A stretch of DNA of 64,000 nt from Phycisphaerae bacterium (GTDB lineage: Bacteria > Planctomycetota > Phycisphaerae > FEN-1346 > JAACEH01). The translations under genes were made by a program, and so were the position numbers. Below the pieces are notes generated by a model, which was not told where the DNA came from, ran no database searches, and worked only from the letters and a program-made list of their open reading frames with translations. Of the stretch, positions 19,901-53,213 are shown piece by piece. The stretch's first letter is position 1, and the number at the start of each line of letters is the position of its first letter. The stretch covers positions 14,939-78,938 of the forward strand of contig JAWLHX010000001.1 of assembly GCA_041690105.1 (NCBI GenBank). Reading direction: 5' to 3'.

Positions 19901-22900
19901 ACGATAGGGGCGACCGGCTGAGTTATACTCGGTGCGGCTGAGGATGTACTTGGCTGAGTTGCCGGCCAGAGGACTGGAGAGGACAGCATAGTAGTCCTGG
20001 GTACCGGTGGTCTCGGGGTCAAAGTCGCAATCATACGTATAGAGACTGACGCCGCCGTTAGTGCCATAATTGGCTGAGAACACGGGGCGCTTGGTTTCAG
20101 CGTCGTACCAGGTGGCGGAGTAGCTTACCCTGAATCCACCATCGTCGCGGCGCAACAGGTGGGCCGTGCGCATAAGCTGGCCGCCACTGCCGTTCTGACT
20201 ATCGTCATAGAGGTAGTTCGTTCTTTCATAGACGGTATCGCCAGTGACGGTGGTGGCATCGGCGTAGCTGGAGTCGCTGCTGTCGCCGCAAAGATAGGCA
20301 TCGATTGTGCGGCCAAGGCTGTCGTAGCTGGTTTTGGTGAAAAGGTTGTTTGGATTAGCTACCTTGATAGTTCTGCCTGCGGCATCGTACCAGTAGTTGG
20401 TCTCCAGGTAGTCGGCATTGACAGCGTCAAACGTGCTGCCGCCAACGACGTTATAGGTACGGCTGCGGAAGCGGCGTCCGCGGGCGTCATAGTATTCTTC
20501 CGTGCGGGAAATCATTTTGCCAGTGTCCGGCTGCCAGTCGTTGTCGCCGTCATAGAAGCTTTCTGTTACTGAAACGCGGCCGCCGCCTGTAAACTGCTCG
20601 CTTTGTGCAGAGACGATGTTGTCAGCGCCGACAGACTTCTCCAGCCTGTTTCGCCAATCGTATAGCTTTCTGGTGAGATAGTAGTTGCTGGCATCGTAGT
20701 AGACGCGGGTACTGGTAAGATTGCCATCACCGACGCCCTCCGTTCCACTGCCAGGCACCGATTCGTCGTAGAAATTCTCGGAAACCTTCACCAGGGCCTG
20801 AAGGTCAGTCCCCTGATAGACAGCTCGAGTGCGGCCAAGCGCATCGTAAGCCGTCTGCCGGTAAGTGCCGTCCCAGCCTTTTTCGAGATAGTGACGGCCC
20901 TGAGTATCGTAGTAATAGTATTGTCGATAAAAGTGCGTTCCTTCGACCGGGTCGCCTGTGGCGGGAATGGTGTGGAAGGAGTCGACCGAGGCTACCTGTC
21001 CGCCATCGTTGTAGTTTGTGCGGGTCCAGGCGACATAGTGAGTTCTGTCGTAAGACTCATTGCCGGTAAGGGTTGATCCGAAGGACATATTAGAGGAATC
21101 CAGCGTGATATTGTCGGTCACCTGCCGAAGCATGCCATATTTGGTGACCTGAATGGGGAGTTTGGGTTTTCCATCCGCGCCGATGGCTGGATAGACACGT
21201 GTCTCATTGGCACCGTAGAAAGTCAGTGTCTCAACGCCGGCGGCATCGGTTGATTTAACCATGCGCCCGAGTCGGTCGTATTCAAACTTCTGAGTCCTGT
21301 TAAGTGGGTTTTGAGCAAAACTCCGCTGCACTTCCGTTGGCGCATCGCCGCTCCAGGCGATCCAGAGACCATTGCCGTCACTAGCCACCTCTGCCGGCAT
21401 GTTCGCTGCTGAGGTGGCAACGTCATTGACAACCAGTGCCCTCCGCCCGTTGACAGGGTGGTAGGAATGGTAAGTGACAATGCCCAATGCGTCCTTCACC
21501 CATCGCAGACGTCCCTGCTGATCGTAGTACTCGATTTCAAATTGAGCCACAGTGCCAGGCCCGTTGTGGCTCTCGCTGACATCAGCAAGAACCCTTTTCC
21601 TGGTCTTAAGCTGTTTCTCATCGGCATCCCAGAAAGCATATTCGAAATCTGTCTTTACTGCTGTGCTGCCGCGAGCTTGGGTGTAGAGGGTATCCACGAC
21701 GTAGTCGTATGTAGAGGCCGGCAGACGCGAAGGAGTTGTAAGGCCGTCGCCATAGTCTGTCGAGCGGGTCACGTATTCAGCGCCAGCTTGGCTGCCATTC
21801 CACTCCACTACAGTTGCGTCGATCAGACGCGTGTCAGAGTTATAGTAGTACTTTCTGACGATGCCGGTTGTGCCAGCGGCCGCGCCCAAGGTGTCAACAT
21901 CGTTACTGCCATACTGAGGCTTGAGGAACTTCCTTAAATCCTCAGCCGAAGTTATTCGCGAGTGAGCCGATGGACCCCGTTCTTCAACCACAAGCCCTTC
22001 ACTGTTGAGTATCTTCGACCGGCAATAATACTTCTCCTGGTCGTTGACCCGCACAATTGTTACCTCTCGCAGCGCCACACCGTTGCTATTAAGGCCGTAA
22101 ATTCGTCTGGCTATTTTGGTGTCATCCGCAACAGTTTCAGTGGCTGTCAAGTCTTGAATGGTGAGATAGACTACATTGTTTGGGTCAGTGGTGTCTGCGT
22201 CGCTGTGCTGCAGGTAGAAAAACGTGTGCTTGACTGTTCCATCACTTCCGCCGCACGATCCGCAATTGCTGTGCACAAGTTCGCTCTTCACCATTGGTGG
22301 CACGCGAACTCCAATCTGTGCCCCTTCTGTCAGCGTCACCTCGCCTTCGTCGCGATCATCCGCGCCGTAAAGATTATTTAGGTTTTGACTGCCGCCCCAC
22401 GGTGTGCTGATGTTGGAACCTGTGTCAACATGGTACGAGTAATAGCTGAATTCCTTCAGTACCTGCGAACCGGTAACACCATAAGTTGACTTGGTGACCT
22501 TGGTGAGCTGATACAGGAACATGTATTCGTACTGAATTTGTTCTATTGCCCCTCGAACGATGAAAAAGCTGTCAGTCGCAGTAACAGCACTAGCCAGATC
22601 CGAAAACGTGATCGTCACGTAATCTCCGCTGACCGAAGTACTTGCAATCGTGCGGATAACGCGGTTGTAACTGCTGTAAGGATTAACCATCACCAGCTTC
22701 ATCTGATCGAACTGGCCTGGGACTACACCTGCTGCTTCGAATGTAAGTGACGTCTTGGTGCCATTGGCTGATGCCATCTTCGACACGACCACGTCTTCGC
22801 AACGGGTTACTTTCGCAAGGTCACCACGTGACCCACGGTAGTAAGGATAGCTTGAGGAGTCATCGCAATAATCATAGGCGACGCCATTGACCGGGCCATC

Positions 22901-23917
22901 AGCATTGGAAACAGTAATGCCGACAATCTTGCCGTTCTCTGTGCCGGGATGAAAACGATATTCATAAGTGATGCGGTCGCCATTGTCATTCGAGACTTCC
23001 GTTATGCGGCCATTGGTACCGATTGTGGAATCATACTTGAATTCCAGAAAACGACCATAAGCATTGCGCTTCCACAGCAGCATTCCCTGCTGTGCCCCCC
23101 AATCGTCATGCGATCCTGCAAACTCAAATTTCATCCCGCTGTCTGGATAGTAAAGAACGATTCGATCGAGAATCTTGAAGTTAGCATTGGCAGGAACAGT
23201 CGGCAGCGGTCGGTCAACATGAACGACACTACCTGAATGCGATACAATCACTCTAAGCTCATAACCTGATCCCATGTCAACCTGGAGCACCCTGTCGACC
23301 ACGTCCAGACCCGGATCCACGCTCAAGGTCACTTCAGTGCCGCTGCTGCCAGTGACCGTATCACTGCCTGAGTTGACCCTGGAGCACGTGAAGAACTTCA
23401 TCTCTGCTCTATAGTCATCCGGCGCCTCATACGTGCTGGGGTCCTGAGTCGCAGTGAACGTCCTTTTATGCGTAGCATCTTTTATCAGGGCAATACTGCC
23501 ACTTGAAACCTGCACGCGCTCGGTAAGCATGTTTACTTCCCAGCGCGCTCCTTGAGGGTCAGGCATCCATTGATTACGTGCCTTGAGGTTAATAAGACGA
23601 CTGTTGTAGGTACGCGTATGAGACCATGACATTCCGTCAGTGGATATGCTGGCGTCGGTCTCGGTCTCAATTACAAAACCATCCTGGAGATTCACCGGGT
23701 CCGATGTGGTGGCGCTGGAGGAGGACGCCCCGGCGCCATTATTGCAACCGCCGGGATTACATTCCGGCGTATTGGGTTCTGTTTCATCATAAGGATTCTC
23801 AGCGCAGCCCTGGGCATTCACCGTCCCCGCCGCCACAGACATGACGATAACAGCTGCCAGCGTCAGAAGAATGGCCGCACTCAAACTCTTAGCAGAATCC
23901 GCGTGGAGATGCTTCAT
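16940..23917 (-). CDS. rhs: RHS/YD-repeat polymorphic toxin with Sec signal peptide and C-terminal zinc-dependent phospholipase C-like tip
   Basis: Start MKHLHADSAKSLSAAILLTLAAVIVMSVAAGTVNA with an AAGGA ribosome-binding site. The 7068-nt ORF extends to 24007, but that N-terminal extension is probably not translated. Dozens of YD repeats (YxYDxxGR/N), then the RHS core end ...HAVDPLGL. The ~290-aa tip carries THKQL, LHVLQDSYSHEGW and GQWKWKDHP, resembling PC-PLC motifs (EDKHKEG, LHYLGDVNQPMH, GYWNWKG). Confidence 0.85.
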   Translation of the reverse strand: MKHLHADSAKSLSAAILLTLAAVIVMSVAAGTVNAQGCAENPYDETEPNTPECNPGGCNNGAGASSSSATTSDPVNLQDGFVIETETDASISTDGMSWSHTRTYNSRLINLKARNQWMPDPQGARWEVNMLTERVQVSSGSIALIKDATHKRTFTATQDPSTYEAPDDYRAEMKFFTCSRVNSGSDTVTGSSGTEVTLSVDPGLDVVDRVLQVDMGSGYELRVIVSHSGSVVHVDRPLPTVPANANFKILDRIVLYYPDSGMKFEFAGSHDDWGAQQGMLLWKRNAYGRFLEFKYDSTIGTNGRITEVSNDNGDRITYEYRFHPGTENGKIVGITVSNADGPVNGVAYDYCDDSSSYPYYRGSRGDLAKVTRCEDVVVSKMASANGTKTSLTFEAAGVVPGQFDQMKLVMVNPYSSYNRVIRTIASTSVSGDYVTITFSDLASAVTATDSFFIVRGAIEQIQYEYMFLYQLTKVTKSTYGVTGSQVLKEFSYYSYHVDTGSNISTPWGGSQNLNNLYGADDRDEGEVTLTEGAQIGVRVPPMVKSELVHSNCGSCGGSDGTVKHTFFYLQHSDADTTDPNNVVYLTIQDLTATETVADDTKIARRIYGLNSNGVALREVTIVRVNDQEKYYCRSKILNSEGLVVEERGPSAHSRITSAEDLRKFLKPQYGSNDVDTLGAAAGTTGIVRKYYYNSDTRLIDATVVEWNGSQAGAEYVTRSTDYGDGLTTPSRLPASTYDYVVDTLYTQARGSTAVKTDFEYAFWDADEKQLKTRKRVLADVSESHNGPGTVAQFEIEYYDQQGRLRWVKDALGIVTYHSYHPVNGRRALVVNDVATSAANMPAEVASDGNGLWIAWSGDAPTEVQRSFAQNPLNRTQKFEYDRLGRMVKSTDAAGVETLTFYGANETRVYPAIGADGKPKLPIQVTKYGMLRQVTDNITLDSSNMSFGSTLTGNESYDRTHYVAWTRTNYNDGGQVASVDSFHTIPATGDPVEGTHFYRQYYYYDTQGRHYLEKGWDGTYRQTAYDALGRTRAVYQGTDLQALVKVSENFYDESVPGSGTEGVGDGNLTSTRVYYDASNYYLTRKLYDWRNRLEKSVGADNIVSAQSEQFTGGGRVSVTESFYDGDNDWQPDTGKMISRTEEYYDARGRRFRSRTYNVVGGSTFDAVNADYLETNYWYDAAGRTIKVANPNNLFTKTSYDSLGRTIDAYLCGDSSDSSYADATTVTGDTVYERTNYLYDDSQNGSGGQLMRTAHLLRRDDGGFRVSYSATWYDAETKRPVFSANYGTNGGVSLYTYDCDFDPETTGTQDYYAVLSSPLAGNSAKYILSRTEYNSAGRPYRSIDNVGRVTEATYDALGRTAQVVEDKGTDPANINRTTRYEYDSKGRLATLIAVNVIDGTTTVDQKTRYVYDCGHDASLPTAVIYPDSQSTFIQDPGTKIWSLDPLSSHDHVSFNYDYVGRRTKVTDQLQVVHNYGYDSAGRLITDSTNGLDDPSFPASVDDRVLRIEMSYDDFGRTTHVTSYNAATAGNIVDQIHYTYNNDDWGALSESRQEHIGAVDVNSSPKVGYLYETAGDGPLASASNSARYSRLKDVVYPGPATARSVRYIYNSSLPGNDRLEKIIRPMSSFQYANYTAGDLVGQVGYGTPVYFFYGYDTQTNTYVHGDIGWGGNYPAWDDFNRTVQVRWSGSGSYDSFNYGYDNAGNRFWRQVAVSGQGDKSEFYTYDRLNRLVSAERGTLVGTSPNFTGVTGKNRAHDWTLDHLGNWTEFQQDDDGLGWDLQQQRGHNEVNEVTSITGGSWVVPVYDAAGNMTQGPKTVSPQNGQTLVYDAWNRLVRVEEEIGETLVPVAEYHYDGLLRRTAKLVRHDDGQQVTWTRTDYYYNENWQVLEERRLKGLASLDAARSAVVDLPSTPDPNYWGCQYVWDSRYIDSLISREEDTNGDGDCLDSSGSRRLIYLQDANYNVTSLVTMVNGSYQVDERYLYDAYGQVTVLDGNWTPRVGNTSAYDNEILYCGYRFDPETGRYHVRHRYYDPLLGRWVTRDPCIRDTAGSYYQTVLGQPIHAVDPLGLYEEYTHKQLTADIASNPISGLRLQDADRIAAADQGADDWLHQASTQAIVSVLTSGLFGRDYQLHFPGARQPDMWYLIFGDHSASNYVYPGFLNDVVVQMVYDAVESCDADRLGTSLHVLQDSYSHEGWPERGFHPEFFDPNVGAIDNPGDPRGQWKWKDHPKAFQDQDGERRIGLHEGINDKIGFKQFMMDSVAPQWKRRVWRIEDEKNRGPTALDNPLLDNSRHQKAMDDTRMVMAEFRRHCCQQQDDGSWKTVGAQP

Positions 23918-23973
23918 ATTAATGTTCCTTACCAGTAGCCCAATAAGATGTCCATTTCCCGGCCATATCTTTC

Positions 23974-26457
23974 TCAACGTAGATTCTTCAGCTTTTCCTG
24001 ACGCCATTTGATGCGCTCCGCCAGATGCTGCCTCTGCTCCTCCTCAAGCCTTGAACGCCATTGCTCAATTTGTTCCACAGCAGTCGCCGCTGAAAATTGC
24101 GGAGAGATGCTTTCCAGCATCGAAAGCCCCTCCTCGTAACGGTTAGTCAAAGAAAAGCCTTCAACAAGTTCGCTCAGCACAAGAAGACGACAGCTTTCAG
24201 ACTGACTGATCGCCAATGCCTCGTCCAGGTGCTGCTTGCCGTCCAGCGGCAGGCGTTCCTTGCCGATGTTCCGAATGCTTGCTGAATAGGCCTTCACCAT
24301 AAGCCATTTTGCTTTAGCGTCGCCGTTGGCGGCTTTAACATGCTCGTCAATCTGTTCCTCCCAGTGCTTCTCCTTGAGCAATTTTCGGTAGGACCAGGTC
24401 AGAATGTTTGCCACCTCAATCCGCACGTGCCCTTGCTCGTCATGCAGGAGTTCTTCAAACATCTGCTGTGTTTCAGGGGTCCCGAGGCCGCGAGCGATTA
24501 TGTTGTGCGTCCGCCAATCAGTCATCGGCAGCTTGCCCTCCACCGCCAGACGCCGCATCACTTGAACGTATCCTTCGTACCCGCGTCCCGGGCCAATCAG
24601 CTCCGCCTGCCGCAGCAGAATCCCAATACGCCTCAATACTGCCATGTCCGCGGCAGCTCTCATTTCCTCAGTCCCAAGAGCCAGGCCATAGGCACGTTCA
24701 GTCCATCTCTTACCGCGCTCTTTATCCCCGCTGGCTATCCAGGCTTCAGCCACGCCACAAGTCGACTGCCACGAAAGCTTCCCCTCCTGGAAGGCCTTGT
24801 CCCACTGAGGCTCGAACTGCAGCAGAAGATCACGCGATGCATCTCCACTGGCGGCAGCCACAGTCGCCAAGGATGTCGTCACCTCCGCACTGTCGCCTTC
24901 GGCAGTTCCAGCTACAGCGCCGATTTTCAACGCTTCGCCCGAACTCAGCACGGAAAGAGCCGCCGCCAAATCCTTCAGTTGTGCCGGTGTTAGAGAAGAC
25001 TTCACCCCCTCGTTCTCAAGATAATTTGCAGTCAAGCTGCGAGCCCATCGCTCACGCTGCTCAATAGGCAGCTCAGGGCCAACGAGAGTTGCCAAAAATC
25101 GCCAGTTGGAAACCCCTGCCTTAATGGTGGTCTCCGGATCCGATAGCGGCACCTCAACCAGGTGAGCGCCAAGTTTCGCCAGAGAACTTCTGGAAGCAGG
25201 TGGCTTGTTCAGCTGGCGCGCCAGCCAGAGCATATCCTGCACAGTCCAGGATCTCCAACCGTCCTGCTTATCGACCATTTCCGCAAGAACCGAAGGGAAG
25301 CTTGTTTCGGAAACCGCTGCAAGTGAAAGCTCCAGTGCCCGCACATCCCCGGTTGGCATCTCTGCGAGACGCCCAGTATCTGCTGCAAAAGTTGCCTTCA
25401 GAACCGCCGCCACGCGATTCTTCTGCAACTCATCAAGGTCGGCCCGACACACTTTCAGTACCGACTGCCATTGTCTGGGAGTCAACAGCTGCGCCTTGTC
25501 GGCATCAGCGCCGTATACATCAATCGCGTAAGTCATGGCCTTTTGGTACGCTCCCGCCCCGTTCTCACCAACCTTCTGAAGGTCGCTCAGCAGACCACCA
25601 AGATATGCCACTCCAACAGTTTCAAGTTTTCCGCCGCTGTTTATCCACACAGCAGGAACGTCTAAGGCCTGCTTGTGACCGAGCCCTCGCAGGCTGCTGC
25701 CAATGCTCATCATCCCCGCGCCATCCATTAAAGCGCATGCCTGCGGATCAGCAAGGTATGCCGCCCAAATACGTTCAGCCAGAGACGACTTGGATTCAGC
25801 ACCTATTTCACTATTTAAGTCGCGGACGTAAGAGGAGATGATCTGTGGCTTGACCTTGCGAACAGACTCAGCATCCTTCAGTATCACTTTGTCGATCTTA
25901 TCCACCAGCCGCTTGCGACCAGCCTGCTGAAGTTGACTTGATCCCTTAATGCGACTGGCAACCGTAGAGATGCCTCCAGAGCTGAAACTATCAACCATTG
26001 CAGACTGACTCGCCCACTTGCCCAGCACATCGGCCGACCCGGCATCTCCCAGCGAACTCAATGACTGCCCGAGAGCCAGTGCCTCATTACCGTCGAGTGC
26101 AAGCAATGTGTCATCGTTCACAAAGGCCGCTTTCAGAGCGGTAAGCCAGCGGCTGCGACTATCTTGAGTAAAATCTTGCTGGAACGACTTCACCAGAGAT
26201 GACCACTGCCGCGGTGAGATCTCGCGAGTACGGGCCGCAGAGGAGAAATACTGCTCGGAAATATAACCTTCCAGCAGCTGACGCTGCTCCTCAGCGGACT
26301 TGCCTTGGGCGGCCAGATCCTGCGCCAGCTTAACCAGCTCACTGCTCTCCATCGCCTGCCATTCAGCCGGAACCTCGGCAGACGCATTTTGGCCCAAAGC
26401 CAGTCCCCCCAGGAATACTACCAGTGTCATGATTGCTGAAAGCTTTCGGCCTGGCAT
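23974..26457 (-). CDS. Large secreted alpha-helical repeat protein upstream of rhs
   Basis: ATG at 26457 after AAGGAG. Signal peptide MPGRKLSAIMTLVVFLGGLALGQNASA. Low-complexity helical repeats. It ends ~56 nt before the rhs start. Confidence 0.6.
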   Translation of the reverse strand: MPGRKLSAIMTLVVFLGGLALGQNASAEVPAEWQAMESSELVKLAQDLAAQGKSAEEQRQLLEGYISEQYFSSAARTREISPRQWSSLVKSFQQDFTQDSRSRWLTALKAAFVNDDTLLALDGNEALALGQSLSSLGDAGSADVLGKWASQSAMVDSFSSGGISTVASRIKGSSQLQQAGRKRLVDKIDKVILKDAESVRKVKPQIISSYVRDLNSEIGAESKSSLAERIWAAYLADPQACALMDGAGMMSIGSSLRGLGHKQALDVPAVWINSGGKLETVGVAYLGGLLSDLQKVGENGAGAYQKAMTYAIDVYGADADKAQLLTPRQWQSVLKVCRADLDELQKNRVAAVLKATFAADTGRLAEMPTGDVRALELSLAAVSETSFPSVLAEMVDKQDGWRSWTVQDMLWLARQLNKPPASRSSLAKLGAHLVEVPLSDPETTIKAGVSNWRFLATLVGPELPIEQRERWARSLTANYLENEGVKSSLTPAQLKDLAAALSVLSSGEALKIGAVAGTAEGDSAEVTTSLATVAAASGDASRDLLLQFEPQWDKAFQEGKLSWQSTCGVAEAWIASGDKERGKRWTERAYGLALGTEEMRAAADMAVLRRIGILLRQAELIGPGRGYEGYVQVMRRLAVEGKLPMTDWRTHNIIARGLGTPETQQMFEELLHDEQGHVRIEVANILTWSYRKLLKEKHWEEQIDEHVKAANGDAKAKWLMVKAYSASIRNIGKERLPLDGKQHLDEALAISQSESCRLLVLSELVEGFSLTNRYEEGLSMLESISPQFSAATAVEQIEQWRSRLEEEQRQHLAERIKWRQEKLKNLR

Positions 26458-26892
26458 GTTCTTAGTCTCCTTAGCCATATCAACGACGGACGTGGATTGT
26501 GTCTGTTGCCCCAAATTCTGCATGGACAATACATGCACTTCTTGAAATTGTCAATATAGAGTCTTCCCCTTTTATTAAGTTTTACTATCCTCTGTTGCCA
26601 ACTGTTACAGCGCACTCCTGATGCAACAACCAAGCACATGACTAGGGGCATGATTACCTTAAGAAGTTTCTGTTCCGCGCCTTAAAGATGATCGGCAGCC
26701 GAATTAGCCTTGATATTCATCTCTAATAGCATTATCCTCACACCCACTCGACTGGCCACTGGAGAATCCTGGTAATCGGGTAGAGTCGAGATCTGGCGCG
26801 GCGGTGTAGGCAGGGCATATCTGTTACCGGCCCTTTCGGTTGCCGGTGCCTCACTATCTCTGCCGTGCTCCGTTTCCAGTATCCCGCTCACC

Positions 26893-26925
26893 GAACCGGA
26901 CGCGCGGTTTTCCCGCATCCGGCTC
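26893..26925 (-). ncRNA. Group II intron domain V
   Basis: Near-consensus 33-nt hairpin gagccggaugcgg-gaaa-accgcgcguccgguuc. Confidence 0.75.
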
Positions 26926-27133
26926 TCGGACAAGGCCCGACGCCCTTCGCTCACGAGTCGCTGACAGGCCGCGCCTGGAGCCGAAAGAGCCCCAGTTCTT
27001 GATAGAGGTACTCGTCCGGGTATCGTGAGGCCCCAATCGGCTCGCCCTGCGGCGTGCCGCGTCCTTGGTCCTTGTTACGGGTCGTTCGCTGCTTCCGTCC
27101 ATGGTTGTCCGTTTCTTCCACCGGTACCCGTAG

Positions 27134-27667
27134 TCACATCTTGACAAGCTTGAGAACCTGCCGGTCGCTGATGCGGCGGGTCACGGAGGTCATCAGTTCA
27201 CCGTGGGGGATGCTGTCGAAGTAACCGCTCAAGTCTGCGTCCACCACCTCCCTGTGCCAGCCATCGAGCAACGTCATGACCTGTCTAATAGCATCATGAG
27301 CGTTACGTCCGGGTCGGTAGGCATACTGCTCCGGCGGCAGGTCCGTCTCGAAGATCGGCCCCAAGACCAGCACTGCCGCCATCTGCACGACGCGATCACG
27401 GACCGTCGGGATACCCAAGGGCCGTTGCTTGCCGTCCGGTTTGGGAATGTAAACCCGCCGGACAGCCTGCGGACGATATTCCTTCTTCCTGAGTTCCTCC
27501 GTCAGTTCACCCAGCCACCGTTCCACCCCGTACAGTTCGATCCCGTGGAAGTCCTGGCCGCCCACCCCCGCCGCACCGCCGTTACCCGGCTTCGTCGGTA
27601 CTACGGGGCCTCTCCGCCACCCCAAGCAGCCTGGCCTGTCCCTCGCGGGTCGCCAGTTGAAGGTCAC
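27134..27667 (-). pseudogene. Group II intron reverse transcriptase/maturase, truncated
   Basis: Encodes only RT motifs 0-4: [34 protein letters not shown] ... [13 protein letters not shown] ... [15 protein letters not shown] ... RQVLKLVKM, then stop. No YADD. Immediately after the stop the same frame reads ...PDEYLYQELGLFRL, resembling the extreme C-terminus of IEPs, so this is an in-frame internal deletion. Confidence 0.8.
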
Positions 27668-28124
27668 GCGCCTTCACCGCTTCGGGTTTCCCGTGTTGCG
27701 TTCGATCTCCTCTGTCGGCATGCCGTCGCCACTACCCCGGCGGGATCGTCAGGTTCTATCGCTCATTCTTCGCCTGACGACGGCGGCCTTCCCCGTTACA
27801 CGGCCGGGTCGGCTCCCGCATTGTCCTTTTCGAGGCCTGCTCAGCGTTCACTCACGTTACGGCCTGTCGACTTGCCGAGTCGCCCAAGGCGACCCTTTAC
27901 ATCAGAGGTTTCGGCAATTTCGTTACCTCCATTGCCGCTCCGATTGCTACCGGCTGGAGCGATCAGTTGCCGGGCGGGATTGGCCCGCTGGAGCTCGACA
28001 CCTTTTCACGGCACACCATGTAAAACGGACCCGCCTAGGGAGGATAATCGGCGTATAATTTGGGCCCACCCCAGCGGCCTCCGATCTGGTATGCATTACG
28101 CACACCAGATGAAGGAGGCAGAGG

Positions 28125-28767: not shown

Positions 28768-30227
28768 TCAGGCCCAGAACGGCACGTACTTGGCATCCTT
28801 CTTCGACTCACTAGCCTGGCCATGAGGCTTAATGAGGCCAGCTTCGATGGTGTCCCTGATGATCCGAGAGGCGATGGGGTAGTTCTTGTCGCTGATGCCA
28901 AGCCGTTTGCGCAGCGTGGCGTTAGTCATCTGCTTGCCGGATACGACCAAGAGACCGGCATGTTGATAGCAGGCGCGGATGCGATCTGCCTTGTCCATGT
29001 CGGCGAACTTACGTGGACCAAAAAGAACGGCAATCGTATGACCGGGCGAAACCCTGAAGTCCGGCGCCGGCAACTGAAACATTTCGACGCTGAACACAAC
29101 CTTGTCAATGCCACTGCCGCGCTCTTCACAAATCTGCATCCGCCGCATAACAGCAGCCAAGTCCTCGTTCCGGGATCGCGGGGGTTCATCGATGAAGCGA
29201 AGCGTGTCGATCAAGGGGACACCCGGGTTGGAGATCTCTATCCGGTCGCTGAATAACTCCACCATCGGTCCGGTGCCCGTTATATGGAATTCCTGGTGAA
29301 TGAGGGCATTCGCCACCAGTTCCCGGACGGCGACCTCCGGGAACATACGCACTTCCTTGCGCAGTGCCTGTCCCACGGCTTCGTTCTGAGGCAATTGACT
29401 GTTGATGAATTCAATGGCGGCCTCGAAGCCGGAGGCATAGCCCTTGGTGACGACCTGTTCGCGTAGCGTCTCAATCCGATTGACACCCTTGTAGACGACG
29501 ATTCGCAGGGCCTTGCGGGCCAGGTGCTCAAACGCATCAAGGCTTTTCGCAAAAAGGATCGCCCCCAAGTTCGTAATGTCGTAGCGATCAGTCGTTCGAG
29601 CGACGATAAAACGTTCAGAGACCAATCGCTTCAAAATGGCCGAACGGTTCTCCGGCAGGTTCTGCCGCGACATCTCGAGGTAGGCTGGGTAGTCGAGCAT
29701 CGCCAGTACGTCATCTGCCCCGGCTCCCTCAAAGGCCAAGCCCTTTTCAAATGGCTGCTTGGCAAACAAAGCCCAGAGGGATCGCTCCTTCTCCGGGAAT
29801 TCCTTGAGCTTCTTCTTGTAGCTGCCCGAACGGATGAACTCGGTGCCCTTGAACTGCACTGGCGTATGGGTGGCCCGAGGGACGCTGAAGATAACGAACT
29901 CTTTGCCGGCTGCTTGGAACTCATGAATGCGAAAGTCAATTCGCGGAGCCAGCTGTATGGCCAGCCAGTTCTCCAGTTCCTCGTTGCCGACCTTCTCGCA
30001 CCGCGGTTTGAATGTTGTGCCGACGAGAGCGTGGGTTTTGTCAGCGACGCCCCAGACAATGTAGCCTTTGTTCTTGCCATGCAGAGCGGCGGAGTTAGCA
30101 ATCGCCGAGAGGTACTCGCCAATATCTTCCGGCGCCCAGTTATTGACCTTAAACTCGACCCATTCTGTTTCACCGGGCATAGAGGCCAACTCGTGCAAGA
30201 GCGCCGCCAGTTGATCGTGCCTCATCC
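28768..30227 (-). CDS. AlbA_2 (Schlafen-like divergent AAA) plus HATPase_c_4 plus C-terminal wHTH regulator-like protein
   Basis: Start MRHDQLAALLHELASMPGETEWVEFKVNNWAPEDIGEYLSAIANSAALHGKNKGYIVWGV... with a GGAAATGAGGTAAGG ribosome-binding site. Central HATPase-like region. C-terminal HTH LRKRLGISDKNYPIASRIIRDTIEAGLIKP. The longer ORF up to 30489 is probably not translated. Confidence 0.7.
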
Positions 30228-30577
30228 TTACCTCATTTCCTCTGCTGGCAACTCCCTGCGCAAGGACTCGCAAGGTCGGACAACCCTCACAGCCCGGAGG
30301 CCGCAGACAACCGGCGGTCTCCGCCCCGTCTGTTGCGAGCACAATTGTCGTGACAGCGTCACGACAGTCCCCTTCAACCACACCTAATTCCGAATACTGG
30401 CCAGAACAGCCAGCCCCCGGACTGTTCGGCGCGTCTTGGCATGATGATCGGGTGGAATTATAGAGTCTGCAAGCATCTTTCACAAGCATTCCCCTTCACC
30501 CGACTTCGCCAGCATCCTACAGGTAGCGATCTGGAGATTCGCTTGGCAACCATGTCGCCTTCTGGCATAATCCCGGC

Positions 30578-33694: not shown

Positions 33695-34369
33695 TCAGTT
33701 TGAACCGCAAAACATGAGAAGGATGTGGTAGAGAGTTACAGGCTGGCCCACTGAAGGCCGCTTGTGAACAGTGCGATAACAATGCTTCAACTCCGGTATC
33801 ACCTGCTCAGCCGACCACTGTTCAGACAAGTTCAAAGAAGAGGCGTCACCGTTGACCTTGTCACAGAGCTTTGCGGCCCACTGGTCCGAGTCATCCGACT
33901 GAACATATCCTAACATTCCTGCTTCAGCCTCGCCCGTGGAGTAGCTGCCGTCAAGGAAAGCCCCAAGTCCCTCAGCACCAAGGTAGCCGCTGACCCCATG
34001 CGAACCAGTACACAGTCTCTTGGCTTCAAACGCATAACGGGCATGGGGTCCAACTTGGGTTCTTTCGAATCTAATATCCAGGCGTGGCCGGCGCTTTCCA
34101 CGGCGACCTCCAACATTCTCCGGCGGATCGTCATGTACCGCGTATCGCGACGCCCACCCCGGCGCGCTGCGATCATCGATTACTTCTCTAATCACCCGTA
34201 CGAGTTCACCGGTGATGTTCTGTTCCTCGGCCTTCTCACAATTGGTGGCCTTAATGCGGTCATACCCCATCTTCAGCAGCCCGAGCACCTGCTTACGAAA
34301 GACGCGGCGATAGACTTCTTCGTCTCCCGCGTCTGTCCTAGGAACTTGTGGGCCCGCTGTAATCGGCAC
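33695..34369 (-). CDS. Hypothetical protein translationally coupled downstream of the second MTase; possible PD-(D/E)xK nuclease-like motif
   Basis: ATG 34369 lies 6 nt after the upstream stop. The segment GKRRPRLDIRFERTQVGPHARYAFEAKRL carries a D...E-x-K-like motif. Confidence 0.5.
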   Translation of the reverse strand: MPITAGPQVPRTDAGDEEVYRRVFRKQVLGLLKMGYDRIKATNCEKAEEQNITGELVRVIREVIDDRSAPGWASRYAVHDDPPENVGGRRGKRRPRLDIRFERTQVGPHARYAFEAKRLCTGSHGVSGYLGAEGLGAFLDGSYSTGEAEAGMLGYVQSDDSDQWAAKLCDKVNGDASSLNLSEQWSAEQVIPELKHCYRTVHKRPSVGQPVTLYHILLMFCGSN

Positions 34370-34374
34370 GTCGC

Positions 34375-37300
34375 TCAGCCCTTTGCTGTGACAAGTTTGT
34401 CAGCAATGAATTCGTCCGCATCAACATAAGCCTGACTCTTGAGCCAGTGCAGGCGTTCACGCGGCTTGAACAAATACGTGGCCTTTCCATCATAGACCCT
34501 CAAGCCACGTTCAAAGTAAAGCCACTGCCGGTGCTGTTGCAGCAGACTCCTGTAAACGTTGCTTAGCCCCTTGTCAACGCCGCTTTGTACGTCAATCTCG
34601 GAGGCCAGGGCCGCCGCTCGCCCTTCAAGATATTCAACTCTCACAACACCCAACCGCTCCGCGTACCCAACCGTGACCCGATGCTGTTGTTGAGAGGTTG
34701 CTCCGACAAAAACATCTAACTCTTTCTTCAATGTCTTGGCATACGCCCTGATCTCCGCCTCGCTTGCCGGTTGGGTGGCAGCCTCTGCAACCTTGCCTTG
34801 ATTCAAGTCCATCCGCACATTCAGCAGATCGTGAACCAGCACTTGCTCGGCTTTGCTGAGGCCAAGCAGAGAGAACACCATGACATTCACTTCATGCTCA
34901 AGCTCTCTCATGCGATCAGGGCGTTGATTCTGGGCGAGAAGTGGTTGCCCGGAGCACTGAGAACGTCGAAACTGTTCTTCTGCTACGAGCGCCCTCTGGA
35001 GCTTGGCCAGTTCTGAGACCTCCTTCTCGCTCTGGCCATCGAATGGCACAGGAAGTGTAAGCAGGGTATCCAAGGTAGTGGTGGATTTCTGCACGCCCCA
35101 CTGCGCCGACATAAAGAACTGATGGTACTGAGCAAAGTCTGAGCACAAGAAAAGCGATAAGGCCCGAAGCATCACCTCGTTCTCTTGGGTGGATGATATC
35201 CCCAATTGACCATGTGGCACCACGACAAAAGAATTTGAAAAAACGGCGAATCGCCTCGCGCAATCAACCACTACATGCGGTGGGCGGCAGATCCTCAGAG
35301 GGGCAGCACCGCCGCGAGTTCTGATATAAGCCCAGTCGCTTGGAACAGTGTCCAATGCTTCCTTGGGAAAGGCGTAGATTCTTCCGCACTCTTTCAGGGC
35401 CTGCATGAGGATTCTGTTTTGGCCGATGACTTCGGGAGCGGGTTTAACGGCCTCCTCTCCGTCCCGCGTGCGCAATTGCGGTCCTTCGTGAACGAGAATG
35501 TTTTTCGCTGCGGCAAAGTCGGCGAAGGTTGGGAATTGCGAGGCAAGCGAATCCAGAACATGCTTGTCCCTCGCCGTTCCCCACATGGCCAGTTTCCACG
35601 GTAATCCGTCGCCGGTTGCCGCATCTGCGACGGGTACCTCCCGCACTTCGGCCCGGTTGACGGCGATGCTCCAAGTGTCTTGTCGGCTGTGGGCCTCTGG
35701 AGGGCAGTTGGCAATCTGATTAACCACCATCGGCGAGTAGGTCAAAACAGTTTCCTGTCCGTCTCGCTCTTCGCCTTCGCCAAGACCTGTGTAAAAGAGA
35801 GCCGCTGCGGGCAGCCGCGATCTACCGGCAAACAGAACCTCAGCTAGATTGGCGAAGTTCGCGATACACCAAACGCGGTTGCGTTTGAAAAACTGCTGCC
35901 GCATTAACTTCGCGGTCTTGGAGGACTTGAAAAGAAGCATCGCAGGTAACAGTAATCCCACCACCCCATTCCCCGTGGTAAAGTCAGCAGCTTTCCACGC
36001 AAACGCCTCTGCCAGTTGCTTGTCGCCGGTCGGGCAGCGTGAAGCGTTCTTGCCCATCCAGGTGAGTGCGTGCTTGTCGCTGGGGGTCAGGTTTTTGTGA
36101 AGTCTCTTCCATGGAGGATTGCCCACCACCCAATCGAACCGGGCCAGTGGTTCGGTCGGCGGCGTGCCAAGCTCCGGATCGAAAAGACCACCAGGAAGAT
36201 GCACTATGTTCCGGTCCCGCAAAGTAGGGAGCTTGAAGTTTGGCGAACCCATCAGGTCGGGCGGACGCACATAGTCCAGCAGCGTCATGACGAGGCTGAG
36301 TTCCGTAACGCTGCACGCATCAGCATCTACGTCAAGACCAAAGATGCTGCTGGTGAGCAGCTCTCGCAGGTCAGAAGGCCGGAGGCGCCGGCTCGGGCTG
36401 GCCGCAACCTTTCGCTCTATCAGCCTGCGATAGCACTGGACAAGAAACGCGCCAGACCCGCACGCCGGATCGAACACCTTCATTCCAGTCTTCAGCGGAT
36501 GCTTGGCGTCGAGTTCATCCAAAATGAAGTTGACAAGATGAATCGGTGTGTAGTAGGCCCCCAGGCCCTTTCCTTGGCCCTCGGAGTGCAAGAACTGCTC
36601 GTACACCACCGAAAGAGTTTCAATCGGGATATGCTGAAAATCGTAGGCCTGAAAATCAAGATGCATCTGGCCAGTGAGCGGCTCGTCTCCGCTGAATGTG
36701 CCGGCCACTTTGCGCACATGCTCTTGGTCAGGAGATGCCTTGCCCGACTTTGGAATCGGGAAGATGCTACCATTGAGCCAGTCCGCCAGCCTGTCAACGA
36801 CAGAGAAAAGCCCATGGCGTGAAGCGTTTGGTCCGAATACAGACTCTTGTTTGATACCCCAGTCGTCAAGTCGCCGCGGCGAAAGTATGCCGCGATCCCG
36901 CAAGTAGCTCAGGTACACATACTGTCCAATGATCGCGTGTGCCGTTTCTTTGGGCAGATCGTGGTTTCGCAGCCATTGCCCCAACAGTTTCAGGTTCTCC
37001 AACAATTTCCAGTCAACCCTTGTCTCCGGGCTTACCGTTTGCGACCAACGCCGCCATAGCGTCCCCTGGTCAATCGCCTGGGCCTTGAAATCCGCGAACT
37101 TGTCCAAAACATCCGCGGCATCGCTGACTACGCTCACGAGAGACTGGTCTTGGGGGCCGGCCCCCGTAGCGTCCGGCGTGTCATACCTGAAACCGCGATA
37201 AAGGCGGAAATGAGTCGGGGTGCTCATCAGCAGGAAAGGGGCAACGTTCTGGTTCCAGACAAATCTGTGTATCTCTGCTGCCTCAGCGTCCGAGGCGGCC

Positions 37301-37509
37301 TCACAGACATAGACGAGTGGCACAATTGAACCGCCTGTAGCCTGATGACCGGATGGCTCATTCAGGACATAGACGCCGCGCAGTTTGCAGGTTTCCGTTG
37401 CCCGGCGGAAGATATGGGAGTACCCGGGGTGTTTCTCCAGATGGTCTCCCCATAGGAATGCCGACGATTGATCGTACTCAAGGAGGCTCAGAAGATTAGT
37501 CAAATTCAT
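34375..37509 (-). CDS. MmeI/PglX-like gamma-class N6-adenine DNA methyltransferase with degenerate N-terminal nuclease motif
   Basis: Start MNLTNLLSLLEY. Motifs GAYYTPIHLV, FDPACGSGAFL and VVGNPPWKRL. The N-terminal region ...PLVYVCEAASDAE...FRLYRG aligns to the MmeI nuclease region but lacks the catalytic D and K. Confidence 0.7.
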   Translation of the reverse strand: MNLTNLLSLLEYDQSSAFLWGDHLEKHPGYSHIFRRATETCKLRGVYVLNEPSGHQATGGSIVPLVYVCEAASDAEAAEIHRFVWNQNVAPFLLMSTPTHFRLYRGFRYDTPDATGAGPQDQSLVSVVSDAADVLDKFADFKAQAIDQGTLWRRWSQTVSPETRVDWKLLENLKLLGQWLRNHDLPKETAHAIIGQYVYLSYLRDRGILSPRRLDDWGIKQESVFGPNASRHGLFSVVDRLADWLNGSIFPIPKSGKASPDQEHVRKVAGTFSGDEPLTGQMHLDFQAYDFQHIPIETLSVVYEQFLHSEGQGKGLGAYYTPIHLVNFILDELDAKHPLKTGMKVFDPACGSGAFLVQCYRRLIERKVAASPSRRLRPSDLRELLTSSIFGLDVDADACSVTELSLVMTLLDYVRPPDLMGSPNFKLPTLRDRNIVHLPGGLFDPELGTPPTEPLARFDWVVGNPPWKRLHKNLTPSDKHALTWMGKNASRCPTGDKQLAEAFAWKAADFTTGNGVVGLLLPAMLLFKSSKTAKLMRQQFFKRNRVWCIANFANLAEVLFAGRSRLPAAALFYTGLGEGEERDGQETVLTYSPMVVNQIANCPPEAHSRQDTWSIAVNRAEVREVPVADAATGDGLPWKLAMWGTARDKHVLDSLASQFPTFADFAAAKNILVHEGPQLRTRDGEEAVKPAPEVIGQNRILMQALKECGRIYAFPKEALDTVPSDWAYIRTRGGAAPLRICRPPHVVVDCARRFAVFSNSFVVVPHGQLGISSTQENEVMLRALSLFLCSDFAQYHQFFMSAQWGVQKSTTTLDTLLTLPVPFDGQSEKEVSELAKLQRALVAEEQFRRSQCSGQPLLAQNQRPDRMRELEHEVNVMVFSLLGLSKAEQVLVHDLLNVRMDLNQGKVAEAATQPASEAEIRAYAKTLKKELDVFVGATSQQQHRVTVGYAERLGVVRVEYLEGRAAALASEIDVQSGVDKGLSNVYRSLLQQHRQWLYFERGLRVYDGKATYLFKPRERLHWLKSQAYVDADEFIADKLVTAKG

Positions 37510-49711: not shown

Positions 49712-51787
49712 TTACGCCTCGCCCTTGGCCTTTACACCGCCCCGCGGGTCCTGCAGAGCCACGCCGAAGTCGTGATAACCGCGCATCTGGACGCCGAGGA
49801 CGTTGAAGTCGGCCTCCGCCGTCTCGATGGTGGGCGACTCCTGGCCATTGAGGAACGCCACCTCGATGACCGGCAGGTCGCCCGGGTCGGCCAGCAGGTA
49901 CCAGGCTTTTGAACTTGCGCCCGTGTAGCGGCTGTTGCTCAGGTAGCGGCTGACCTCGGTCCGGAACTTCCCGGCGTGCGGGTTGGCCACCGGGTACTTG
50001 GTGCTGGAGGTCGTATCGCGAATCTCCAGACTCTTGTGCAGCACCATGGCCATGGCCGACAGAGCCGTGGGTACCAGCAGGATGCTGGGCATGATGCCGA
50101 TCGGCTTGTTGTCGGCGTCGACCTGATCCATGAAGGTCACTTCGCCCTTCGTCAGACCATCGATCCCCAGCACTGTGTCGGCGCCACTGACGTAATTGGC
50201 GTTACCGGCGGAGAAAAAGCTGCTGTTGGCCAGGAATACCGACCAGAAGACGTCGTTGATCTTCAGCCCCGAGCCGCGGCCCAGCTTCCTGGGCACCGTG
50301 GTGATGGCCCCGAGATCATCATTTATGATGTCGCGGCGATCCACTGAGAGCATCAGGCCGTAGGTGTCGGCCCTGTTGGCGTAGCTTTCCTCCCCGAGCG
50401 TTCCGTGCTTCAGTTCGCCGCCGGGGGCCACGATTTCATACTGGTCCTTGCCGACCAGCCGGTAGCTGGTGACCGTCTTGAAATCCCGCACGCTGCGCAG
50501 AGCGCAGATGTTCCGCCAGACCCGCTCCACGCTGAAGAAGCCATCAAGCAGAAACTTGTTGGCCACGTTCGACAGGATGCCGCCGATGTCGACCGTCGAG
50601 AAACCAGCCTGAATGTCGGCAAAGGCATGGCGCAGCACCGCCCGGCTGTCGCGGAACGTGCGGCCCGTGTAGCCGTTGGCCCAAGCGGCCTCCAGCAGCA
50701 GTTCCTGCAGCCCCAGGCCACCCCGGAAGCGCTTGTCAGCGGCGTCGAGGGTCTTTTCGTCGAACTCCTTCTCCACGCCCTCAAACCTGGCGGAGATCAT
50801 GCAGGCCGCTTCCAGCAGACGCCCGCTCATCGGGTTATCCGGTACGTGGGCCGCAGGCGCCTTGGGCCTTGAGGCCCTGAGTACTTCCAGTTCTGTCTTC
50901 GTCTCGTCCCAGCCCTCCTCGATGGCTTTGGCCTCGATTTCGGCGAACCTGCCGTTGCAGATCCGCCGGATGGCGCTGATGCGGTTGGTTTCAAGCAGCG
51001 CCCGGGCACGGATCTCCTTCACCGGATCGGCCGCCTCCACCGTGCCAGCGGTCTGCTGCTCCAGAGTCTGAACAGGGGCCGCCACCTGACCCTTGCCTTC
51101 GCCGGTCGCCGTCTGCTCGTGGCCTTCCACACTGTTCTGTTCCGTGACAACCTCGGTCGTCTCGTTCGTCACCACGTCCATATGCTCTTTCTCCCTGGCG
51201 GCTCCTGTGCCCGCCGCGATACTGGCTGACGTCTGATCGTCCGCCCCGTTGCCCACGAAACTCACTTCCGACAGTTGCGACCGCCGAGCCACATTGATCG
51301 GCCCGCTGACCTCCCTGCCGTTGACATTCAAGGTCCTGCCTTCGGGAACGAACTCCACCTCCTGCACGCTCGCTCCGATTGAGGCCTGCCACGGATAGCC
51401 ATTTTCGGCGTCGGCCACCACCTCACGGGCCGCGGCACTTGTCGAACTGACCACACCGGTCACCCGTAGCCGGCCACCGAGTACGTTCACAGCCTCCAGA
51501 TGGCCGACCCGCGCCGTGCGATTGTGATCGAGGTAGACCTTGGCTCCGCCACGGATCGACAGGCCGTCCAGATCGACAACCACCGGAAAACGCCAGCCCG
51601 CGAGGGTCAGGGGACCGCCGGTATAGGCATCCATGTGGAACTTCCGCGGCCGGGCGGGCATGCCTTCGCCACCAGTGACAGCCTCGGCCGCCTCAATATT
51701 GATGTCGGCGCTCAGCGTCAGTTCACGCGGCACGTCGGGTTTCTCCGTCAGCATTCTGGTCATCTTCATCCTTCTCCTCGTTTTCAT
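49712..51787 (-). CDS. Prohead protease - scaffold-like linker - HK97-fold major capsid protein fusion
   Basis: N-terminal ~200 aa are protease-like, followed by an acidic low-complexity linker. The C-terminal ~400 aa carry capsid-like segments (...ARFEGVEKEFDEKTLDAADKRFRGGLGLQELLLE...SYRLVGKDQYEI...). Confidence 0.7.
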   Translation of the reverse strand: MKTRRRMKMTRMLTEKPDVPRELTLSADINIEAAEAVTGGEGMPARPRKFHMDAYTGGPLTLAGWRFPVVVDLDGLSIRGGAKVYLDHNRTARVGHLEAVNVLGGRLRVTGVVSSTSAAAREVVADAENGYPWQASIGASVQEVEFVPEGRTLNVNGREVSGPINVARRSQLSEVSFVGNGADDQTSASIAAGTGAAREKEHMDVVTNETTEVVTEQNSVEGHEQTATGEGKGQVAAPVQTLEQQTAGTVEAADPVKEIRARALLETNRISAIRRICNGRFAEIEAKAIEEGWDETKTELEVLRASRPKAPAAHVPDNPMSGRLLEAACMISARFEGVEKEFDEKTLDAADKRFRGGLGLQELLLEAAWANGYTGRTFRDSRAVLRHAFADIQAGFSTVDIGGILSNVANKFLLDGFFSVERVWRNICALRSVRDFKTVTSYRLVGKDQYEIVAPGGELKHGTLGEESYANRADTYGLMLSVDRRDIINDDLGAITTVPRKLGRGSGLKINDVFWSVFLANSSFFSAGNANYVSGADTVLGIDGLTKGEVTFMDQVDADNKPIGIMPSILLVPTALSAMAMVLHKSLEIRDTTSSTKYPVANPHAGKFRTEVSRYLSNSRYTGASSKAWYLLADPGDLPVIEVAFLNGQESPTIETAEADFNVLGVQMRGYHDFGVALQDPRGGVKAKGEA

Positions 51788-53213
51788 CCTGCGGCTCGGC
51801 CTTCGTCCGCGGCTGCGCCTCGGCCAGGCCCAGTTCCTTCATCAGGGCCAGCTCCTTGGCCCTCTGCCGCAATTCCGTCTCCCAGTCCTTGCCCTGCCGG
51901 GCATATTCCGTGGCCAGCGTGGTTGTGTTGGATGCCAGGCGAGTGGCCTGAGCATTGGCTTCCTTGGCCGGATCAACGTGTTCACGGCCGTCCCAGAACC
52001 ACTGGTGCGGCGCATTTTCCGGCAGCGCCCATCGGTACACCCTCACGGCCTCGGCCAGCCACGCCGTCAGAATCCTGTCCAGCACCAGCGTCTCAACGTG
52101 CGATTGCTCAACCCTGATCGATTTGTAGTAGGTCTGGTGATCCAGTCGCCCCGAGGCATAGTTGTAGCCGCTGGAGTTGCAGGCGGCGATGTTGAACGGC
52201 ATGTTCAGGCAGCGGGCGATTTCATTGAGAATCTCGTGCTTGAACTCGCTGTAAGTCGTGGCCGGCTGCTCCGCCTTGATCTGGCTCGGCTCCCACCCTT
52301 CCGGGCCGAAAACAGCCATGTTCGGCTCGAACTCCATGGTCACGCCGGCATCGACTTCAGCCGCCTCGCCACCGGTGGGGGCGTTTGTCTTCATGAAGAT
52401 CGCCACGTTGGCCGCCGACTCGGCCGCCGCGATCACCGCCAGCGTATAGCGCCTCAGCTGGGCAAAGAGCGGCAGGGCAGGCAGGATGTCTGGCAATCCG
52501 CGTGACTGGCCCGGGCGGTCCTGCCGCAACCAGTGCACCACGGCCTCCGCGGGAATGCGGTCGTAGTCCCGGCCGAAGCAACCGGCACCGTCACCGGGGT
52601 GGGCCTTCAGAACGTGGTATTCCACGGGGTTGCCTGCATCATCAAAGACAATTCCGTCAACCGCATGCCTCCCCGGCGTTCGGTCCGGCGTCGTCACCTG
52701 GTCGGCCTCGACCAGCCGCAGGTCAAGCTGCACCGCGGTATCAAGGGCCGGATTATCAAAGAGCACGGCAAAGGCCTCGCCGTCCTGCGCGCGGGCCATC
52801 CGCATCGTCCGCAACTTGCCGGCCAGATCGACCTCTCGCGCCCAGCGGCAGAACTCCTGCTCGATAACGTGGTTCAGACTGCTATTGAGTCCGTCGCCGA
52901 GCAGCATCTGCAGCCGTGGTCCGGTGCCGATGACGTCATTGGCCAGTGTCAGCACGATGCCACGGGCATAGCTGTTGTTGGCCACTTCATACCGCGCCCG
53001 GCTCCGCAGCACGCGCCGCACTTCCGGGCTGGCAGCCGCGTTGGCTGACAGATGATCGGCATTGGCCCAATGGCGACGATTGTCGGGCGTGGTCTGGGCG
53101 GAGTCGAATCTGGCCCGGACAAACAGTTGCTGCACGGCCGTAATGGCCCGCCGGCGGCGTCTTTCCCCGGCACCCGACCACACGCCCTTGAACTTGTCGA
53201 TAATGCGTCCCAT
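51723..53213 (-). CDS. Phage portal protein (lambda-like family)
   Basis: Start MGRIIDKFKGVW. Size and acidic C-terminal tail are typical of portals. Overlaps the capsid fusion gene start. Confidence 0.8.
   Translation of the reverse strand: MGRIIDKFKGVWSGAGERRRRRAITAVQQLFVRARFDSAQTTPDNRRHWANADHLSANAAASPEVRRVLRSRARYEVANNSYARGIVLTLANDVIGTGPRLQMLLGDGLNSSLNHVIEQEFCRWAREVDLAGKLRTMRMARAQDGEAFAVLFDNPALDTAVQLDLRLVEADQVTTPDRTPGRHAVDGIVFDDAGNPVEYHVLKAHPGDGAGCFGRDYDRIPAEAVVHWLRQDRPGQSRGLPDILPALPLFAQLRRYTLAVIAAAESAANVAIFMKTNAPTGGEAAEVDAGVTMEFEPNMAVFGPEGWEPSQIKAEQPATTYSEFKHEILNEIARCLNMPFNIAACNSSGYNYASGRLDHQTYYKSIRVEQSHVETLVLDRILTAWLAEAVRVYRWALPENAPHQWFWDGREHVDPAKEANAQATRLASNTTTLATEYARQGKDWETELRQRAKELALMKELGLAEAQPRTKAEPQDENEEKDEDDQNADGETRRAA

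Follow-up and report, generated by a model that had tools for sequence, protein, structure and literature searches.

The window analysed here is a stretch of 64,000 nucleotides from a Phycisphaerae bacterium (assembly GCA_041690105.1, contig JAWLHX010000001.1, positions 14,939 to 78,938 of the forward strand). Within it, a pair of adjacent genes on the minus strand was studied, the first coding for a large protein of 1044 amino acids with the motifs of a DNA methyltransferase, the second for a small protein of 224 amino acids with a PD-(D/E)xK-like nuclease motif (Table 1). The two genes were found side by side at every informative related locus, and they probably constitute a restriction-modification module in which the nuclease is supplied in trans.

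Both open reading frames (ORFs) lie where a preliminary description, made from the sequence alone, had located them, and the strings which it quoted were all retrieved, i.e. GAYYTP, DPACGSG, NPPW, PLVYVCEAA and FRLYRG in the large protein, LDIRFE and FEAKRL in the small one. The distance between the stop codon of the first gene and the start codon of the second is, however, 5 and not 6 nucleotides. As was also proposed, the pair is convergent with an intact MmeI-like gene, which displays the motif D80-x9-E90-x-K92 and whose stop codon is found 21 nucleotides from that of the small gene, on the opposite strand.

Table 1. Features of the gene pair and of its convergent neighbour (window coordinates; residue numbers are those of the respective protein).
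Feature	Position	Strand	Basis
Large subunit gene, 1044-residue N6-adenine DNA methyltransferase (by its motifs)	34375..37509	-	TGA stop codon at 34375-34377, ATG at 37509
N-terminal alpha/beta domain, residues 1-130	37120..37509	-	No catalytic residues; P64, W85-N86-Q87 and P91 conserved
Helical spacer, residues 131-290	36640..37119	-	Helices 131-272 in the AlphaFold2 model; aligns with the spacer region of the neighbouring MmeI-like protein
Methyltransferase core, residues 291-575	35785..36639	-	N6_Mtase match at 297-572; motif I DPACGSG, motif IV NPPW
Putative target-recognition and C-terminal region, residues 576-1044	34378..35784	-	PDLC03623 coverage to residue 1035
5-nucleotide spacer GCGAC, from the methylase stop codon to the GTG of the small gene	34370..34374	-	Sequence read directly
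Small subunit gene, 224-residue predicted PD-(D/E)xK nuclease	33695..34369	-	GTG start at 34369
Codons D98 (LDIRFE) to E115-A-K117 (FEAKRL), predicted catalytic residues	34019..34078	-	Conservation and AlphaFold2 model
MmeI-family gene, 1031 residues	30578-33673	+	Convergent with the gene pair

For the large gene, the ATG codon was preferred to a longer GTG start at 37569, which has no support, because the orthologues align from residue 1. For the same reason, the NCBI call (P0121, 982 amino acids) was considered to be truncated: it begins at V63, leaves out 62 residues conserved among the orthologues (37321-37509, minus strand) and thereby removes half of the conserved N-terminal domain. The G+C content of the pair is 0.55-0.58 vs. 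0.61-0.66 for its flanks. A scan for promoters and terminators around the operon gave counts no better than those obtained in shuffled sequence. The possibility of a decayed pseudogene followed by a chance ORF was ruled out, since neither protein is truncated and both have conserved counterparts in different phyla.

The association between the two genes was analysed in both directions. A scan of genomes (one per species) queried with the methylase returned 80 loci, of which three end at a contig edge; in the 77 others, the small gene is located immediately downstream and on the same strand. The gap between stop and start codons, measured in 75 of these loci, is -4 nucleotides in 25 cases, 0 in 20 and -1 in 6 (51/75 as a whole), and such overlapping or abutting codons imply a translational coupling. 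As for the metagenomes, the scan was queried with the small protein and also returned 80 loci. The C-terminus of a methylase was found directly upstream of the small gene in all 71 loci with enough upstream DNA. Twelve metagenomic loci had been flagged by the script as devoid of methylase; ten of them proved to be filter artefacts, the methylase ORF being listed, and the other two have only 159-217 nucleotides of upstream sequence. An all-against-all clustering of the flanking ORFs in the 80 genomic loci revealed no other gene family in more than seven of them. The module is therefore limited to these two genes; its MmeI-like neighbour is not conserved beside it in the other genomes.

More distant relatives, with 21-31% identity, show the same gene order; they are located on plasmids of Rhizobium, Bradyrhizobium elkanii (pBel61), Mameliella and Clostridium botulinum Okra (pCLD), where an "N-6 DNA methylase" is annotated, followed by a "hypothetical protein" of ca. 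220 amino acids. The latter proteins match the hidden Markov model (HMM) of the small-protein family with E-values of 1e-12 to 2e-23 and retain D...E(A/C)K. The alphaproteobacterial plasmid versions possess an additional gene of ca. 155 codons, which overlaps the methylase start by 4 nucleotides (L081:3289-3753, L082:3300-3776 and L084:4348-4824 in our set of loci) and is missing from both the window and C. botulinum pCLD; in this sub-branch, its product may act as a regulator or as a third subunit. Searches of IMG/VR and INPHARED gave no phage-borne relatives of the pair, which is thus not a typical phage cargo, despite the prophage adjoining it in this window.

Concerning the small protein, no match was found in Pfam, PADLOC, NCBIfam, PHROGs or the PDB sequences, and its relatives are all named "hypothetical protein" by their sources. 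The family is nevertheless large, with 2411 representatives of 50% identity clusters at E ≤ 1e-3, 979 at E ≤ 1e-10 and 315 at E ≤ 1e-30. The best 150 relatives are stand-alone proteins, mostly of ca. 220 amino acids (range 156-267), without a single fusion. Among others, the residues E49, R94, D98, E115, K117, R118, Q157, H202 and H215 are invariant in 66 homologues, and the set formed by E49, D98, E115 and K117 is kept in 75 out of 75 orthologues paired with a methylase.

The AlphaFold2 model of this protein (predicted local distance difference test, pLDDT, 93.3; predicted template modelling score, pTM, 0.88) displays successively a helix (residues 49-65), three strands (76-80, 99-103 and 111-119), a second helix (135-139) and a fourth strand (149-156). 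E49 opens the first helix, D98 is found where the second strand begins, and the third strand contains E115-x-K117; in the model, the four residues thus occupy their canonical elements (helix, strand 2, strand 3) within a predicted nuclease-type core. The residue pattern of PD-(D/E)xK enzymes, D...(D/E)xK on strands 2 and 3 plus a glutamate on helix 1, was thus recovered, in agreement with the motif pointed out in the preliminary description. In a Foldseek comparison of the model with the PDB, no match reached significance: PaqCI came first (E = 0.044), and MunI, BamHI, SwaI, MspJI and MUS81 were among the top weak ones; the nuclease assignment is for this reason based on motif and topology. 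When the small protein was compared with the nuclease domain of MmeI, the ExK strand alone lined up, and not significantly.

The large protein matches the Pfam families N6_Mtase (2.6e-18; 66.8 bits), Eco57I (2.8e-11) and MmeI_Mtase (3.6e-10; 39.9 bits vs. a cutoff of 27), with no match to MmeI_hel, MmeI_TRD or MmeI_N, and is, by its motifs, a gamma-class N6-adenine methyltransferase. More than 1600 homologues were found, the best 120 being of ca. 1040 amino acids with 44-52% identity over their full length. Motif I (D347, G351-S352-G353) and motif IV (N464-P-P-W467) are invariant in an alignment of 76 sequences, and the enzyme is therefore predicted to be active. Two PADLOC models cover most of the chain, REase_MTase_IIG PDLC03623 spanning residues 121-1035 (9e-47) and PDLC03603 residues 64-543 (8e-42); the better of these scores is to be compared with the 3e-259 reached by the true Type IIG neighbour. 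Against solved structures, matches were restricted to the methyltransferase core, where Type I HsdM, MmeI, DrdV, PglX and TaqI are about equal. The label "MmeI/PglX-like" given earlier is thus appropriate at the level of the superfamily, but not beyond, since the resemblance to MmeI is confined to the methyltransferase core and, in a weak form, to the helical spacer. The C-terminal part, residues 576-1044, is putatively assigned to target recognition.

The N-terminal domain deserves separate consideration, as it occupies the position of the nuclease in Type IIG enzymes. Neither in the 76 aligned sequences nor in the 75 paired orthologues is any aspartate, glutamate or lysine invariant within residues 1-130, and this domain therefore cannot be a PD-(D/E)xK catalyst. 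Position 70 is a glutamate in 38 of the 75 orthologues, the others having K, R or D; position 72 varies, and G45 is nearly invariant. By contrast, no change was seen in the 76-sequence alignment at P64, W85-N86-Q87, P91, Y104 and F107, while P64 and W85-N86-Q87 were each scored as retained in 73 of the 75 orthologues. The plasmid versions follow the same pattern, with WNQ-like motifs (WSQ, WNQ, WNA) and, again, no D...ExK. The mean column conservation of the domain is 0.59 vs. 0.54-0.70 in the remaining ones, the C-terminal half having values of 0.61 (residues 576-830) and 0.54 (residues 831-1044). As the N-terminal domain lacks catalytic residues and yet nearly equals the other domains in conservation, it is under selection for some non-catalytic role.

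It had been proposed that this region can be aligned with the nuclease domain of MmeI and that the catalytic D and K have been replaced by V and A. The string PLVYVCEAA is indeed present, although the absence of these residues is a feature of the whole family and not a lesion of one copy. The alignment itself was not borne out: with hhalign, only residues 164-468 (helical spacer and methyltransferase) of the methylase family align with the neighbouring MmeI-like protein, at 94% probability, and nothing before residue 166 could be aligned between the N-terminal profile and a profile of 38 MmeI N-termini. A profile search of the PDB sequences with the N-terminal domain gave no match, and hhalign detected no homology between this domain and the small nuclease. 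The AlphaFold2 model of residues 1-300 (pLDDT 84; structure predictions were made with substrings of database proteins) begins with an alpha/beta part and continues as a helical bundle. Its Foldseek matches in the PDB are weak only (E ≥ 0.016), DrdV coming first, and the top of the list is mostly composed of nuclease-fold proteins (DrdV, Hjc, MUS81-EME1, EcoR124I HsdR, RecU and Cas4), which is suggestive of a nuclease-like fold in this model. On sequence comparison, the N-terminal domain is thus a distinct conserved domain, not detectably the MmeI nuclease domain minus two residues.

As for known systems, the closest described arrangement is that of the motif-less MmeI homologues with separate partners, YeeA/DnmA, YeeB and YeeC. 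MmeI homologues without PD-ExK motif were reported to have, in all cases, separate genes for a helicase and a nuclease beside them, the replaced N-terminal domain being proposed to dock these partners (Morgan et al. 2009; PMC2731913). The second group of MmeI homologues in that study differs in the first 100 residues and lacks the motif, which corresponds to the situation observed here. The pair shares with YeeA/DnmA-YeeB-YeeC a large methyltransferase-recognition protein of the MmeI/Type IIG superfamily, whose first ca. 100 residues are non-catalytic, and a linked separate nuclease, and the docking hypothesis considered below is the one put forward there (PMC2731913). The two differ in that three genes are involved in the Bacillus system, with a superfamily 2 (SF2) helicase and a GIY-YIG/T5orf172 protein as partners, whereas a single PD-(D/E)xK protein of ca. 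220 amino acids, and no helicase, is associated with the present methylase, which moreover is not of the MmeI family outside its methyltransferase core. Neither an SF2 helicase nor a GIY-YIG/T5orf172 protein was found as a conserved neighbour in the 80 genomic loci.

With the single-chain Type IIG/IIL enzymes (MmeI, DrdV, BpuSI, Eco57I), the large protein has in common a size of ca. 1000 amino acids and the order N-terminal domain, helical spacer, gamma-class methyltransferase and C-terminal recognition region; unlike them, it has a partner, and the nuclease site is found on this second protein instead of in the same chain. Heterodimeric Type IIS enzymes such as R.BspD6I, BtsI and BsrDI also associate a site-recognising large subunit with a small subunit of ca. 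180-220 amino acids carrying the nuclease active site, although their large subunits are active nickases themselves and not methyltransferases. The MmeI family was defined by an N-terminal PD-ExK domain, a match to Pfam MmeI_N and the motif D70-x9-E80-x-K82, on a single polypeptide; the pair stands outside this definition, the downstream partner being conserved in 77/77 and 71/71 loci. It is not a one-chain Type IIG enzyme either, since no nuclease motif was found anywhere in the methylase chain to provide the second active site, and membership tests also set it apart from PglX and from the DnmA-type system. No description of the pair was found in the literature, including a paper on BREX (bacteriophage exclusion) diversity and the MANTIS preprint, REBASE being outside this search, so that this is absence of evidence only. 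The concept is not categorically new; the difference from the arrangement of Morgan et al. lies in the single small, predicted PD-(D/E)xK partner.

Taken together, these data are best accounted for by a self-contained two-subunit restriction-modification module derived from the Type IIG/IIL lineage, with its nuclease in trans, to which we assign a probability of ca. 0.6. The large protein would use its C-terminal half to read a DNA site and would methylate adenine, by which the host DNA would be protected. Its N-terminal part, usually the seat of a PD-ExK domain, is made up of the conserved, catalytically empty alpha/beta domain with its WNQ motif and the helical spacer. The co-translated small protein would be the donor of the PD-(D/E)xK site (E49, D98, E115, K117) and would cut unmethylated DNA; most likely, the large subunit recruits or licenses it by means of the N-terminal domain. 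The idea of a split system, in which a nuclease-dead methyltransferase-recognition protein relies on a separate small nuclease, had already been raised in the preliminary description, and it fits the strict two-way coupling, the invariant E...D...ExK and the nuclease-type core of the model. From these observations, we infer that the small protein is active as a nuclease, that foreign DNA is restricted and that the N-terminal domain serves for docking. A wider proposal, more tentative and somewhat short of an even chance, is that of an undescribed "split Type IIG" subtype, in which the empty N-terminal domain docks and licenses a generic small PD-(D/E)xK nuclease in trans, and which would comprise at least 315 clusters at 50% identity, in many phyla and on plasmids. 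At present, its members are labelled as an N-6 DNA methylase next to a hypothetical protein, or mistaken for single-chain Type IIG enzymes.

Several points weigh against the two-subunit module. The recognition region is fairly conserved (0.61) and not hypervariable, as diversified specificities might have made it. The pairwise distances of the two proteins are correlated (r = 0.59), which linkage alone could explain. Cleavage, methylation, restriction and subunit contact are all predictions. Finally, DnmA-YeeB-YeeC of B. subtilis, a related locus, showed no restriction in tests (PMC9973331), and conserved methylase-nuclease operons therefore do not always act as restriction systems.

The main rival, which we regard as improbable, is a conventional Type II pair, the small protein being an independent sequence-specific endonuclease directed at the same site as the methylase, without interaction between the two, and the N-terminal domain having some other role, e.g. 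in regulation or oligomerisation. The small protein indeed has the size of a Type IIP enzyme, its weak Foldseek matches include the sequence-specific MunI, BamHI and SwaI, and the moderate conservation of both the recognition region and the nuclease is what one shared specificity would be expected to give. Large conserved families of Type IIP enzymes that remain tied to one methylase family down to 21-31% identity, as is the case here, are however rare, and a conserved non-catalytic N-terminal domain followed by a spacer, at the very position of the Type IIG nuclease, would be left unexplained.

Less probable still is a regulatory or housekeeping methylase, as argued for B. subtilis DnmA, whose nuclease-fold partner would not restrict unmodified foreign DNA; this partner could be a modification-dependent nuclease, an inactive sensor, or a factor of repair or recombination. 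The conservation of the DnmA-YeeB-YeeC cluster despite its lack of restriction in B. subtilis (PMC9973331) is a precedent for it, and defence proteins commonly contain nuclease-fold domains devoid of activity (PMC12839542). Yet the full catalytic set (E, D, E, K) is invariant in 75/75 partners, which excludes an inactive sensor, and the nuclease gene is never lost, which together with this invariance makes an orphan or regulatory methylase unlikely. Moreover, the pair adjoins defence-type genes (the MmeI-like enzyme and a Schlafen/AlbA_2 protein), occurs on plasmids and is lower in G+C than its flanks, all of which fits mobile defence cargo.

A remnant or satellite of BREX, in which the large protein would be a PglX without its partners, is effectively refuted on every feature examined: PglX/BrxX is likewise large, joins a gamma-class adenine methyltransferase to a recognition domain and needs partners for restriction, and its models and structures are weakly matched, but by the methyltransferase core only, the NCBIfam models of BREX methyltransferases giving 14-33 bits (best 32.6 vs. 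a cutoff of 400) for cutoffs of 400-900, the BrxX N-terminus being a helical bundle (PMC12839542) and not an alpha/beta domain, and brxA, brxB, brxC, pglZ and brxL being absent from the large window ORFs scanned and not conserved in the 80 related loci. The lack of BREX genes nearby, stated in the preliminary description, was thus confirmed, whereas its alternative of an orphan PglX-like modifier is contradicted by these scores and by the nuclease gene that is never lost.

Regarding the surroundings, the left 14 kb of the window contain type II secretion or type IV pilus-like genes, and from 38 to 63 kb extends a prophage, whose genes include those for the tape measure, capsid, portal and terminase. 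DUF1573 and the best homologues hint at Planctomycetota. Between them are found an RHS-repeat protein, a degenerate group II intron, the Schlafen/AlbA_2 protein, the MmeI-like enzyme and the gene pair, a mixed island of defence and conflict genes beside the tail end of the prophage. The MmeI-family gene, with its PADLOC Type IIG match (PDLC03627, 3e-259) and its D80-x9-E90-x-K92, exceeds the Pfam cutoffs of MmeI_Mtase and MmeI_hel, is just below that of MmeI_TRD, and apparently encodes an intact MmeI-family Type IIL enzyme. Divergent from it, with 88 nucleotides between the start codons, is a gene for a 573-amino acid protein with Schlafen AlbA_2 and HATPase_c_4 domains (28768-30489, minus strand).

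Elsewhere in the island, two Rfam group II intron matches about 1.2 kb apart, D1-D4 (27852-27990; 94.7 bits) and D5/D6 (26780-26927; 43.9 bits), enclose a truncated reverse-transcriptase ORF (27134-27667; RVT_1 positions 1-96 of 205; phrog_1423), and the whole (26780-27990, minus strand) looks like a degenerate group II intron. The RHS-repeat/DUF6531 protein of 2355 amino acids (16940-24007, minus strand) is directly preceded on the same strand by an ORF of 854 codons without family match (23974-26538), which overlaps the RHS start by 34 nucleotides; together, they may represent a polymorphic-toxin locus. Among the secretion genes, the secretin is present as two overlapping ORFs on the plus strand (2224-4601), one with Secretin_N and N0 domains (2224-3687) and the other with Secretin_N and Secretin (3573-4601), and this split may be due to a frameshift in a GspD-like gene or to an error of sequencing. 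Within the prophage, a protein of 1456 amino acids with SIR2_2, tetratricopeptide repeats (TPR) and a PIN-TPR-GreABC PIN domain (54969-59339, minus strand) is located between the terminase (60632-62917) and portal (51723-53501) genes and looks like a defence-type gene carried within the phage morphogenesis module. A marginal Rfam transfer RNA match inside the portal gene region (53429-53500, minus strand; 29.8 bits vs. a gathering score of 29), which ARAGORN does not confirm, is probably spurious.

The family, large and unannotated, is likely to be miscalled by automated tools. If the proposal made for the pair is correct, its large subunit would be taken for a complete Type IIG enzyme by PADLOC-style models, while RefSeq leaves the small one as "hypothetical", and censuses of defence systems would therefore misclassify hundreds of loci and miss the real nuclease. 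Recognition and cutting modules borne by separate chains would also be attractive for enzyme engineering. In evolutionary terms, a methylase-recognition protein with a detachable nuclease would, if confirmed, represent an intermediate between the multi-subunit Type I systems and the fused Type IIG enzymes.

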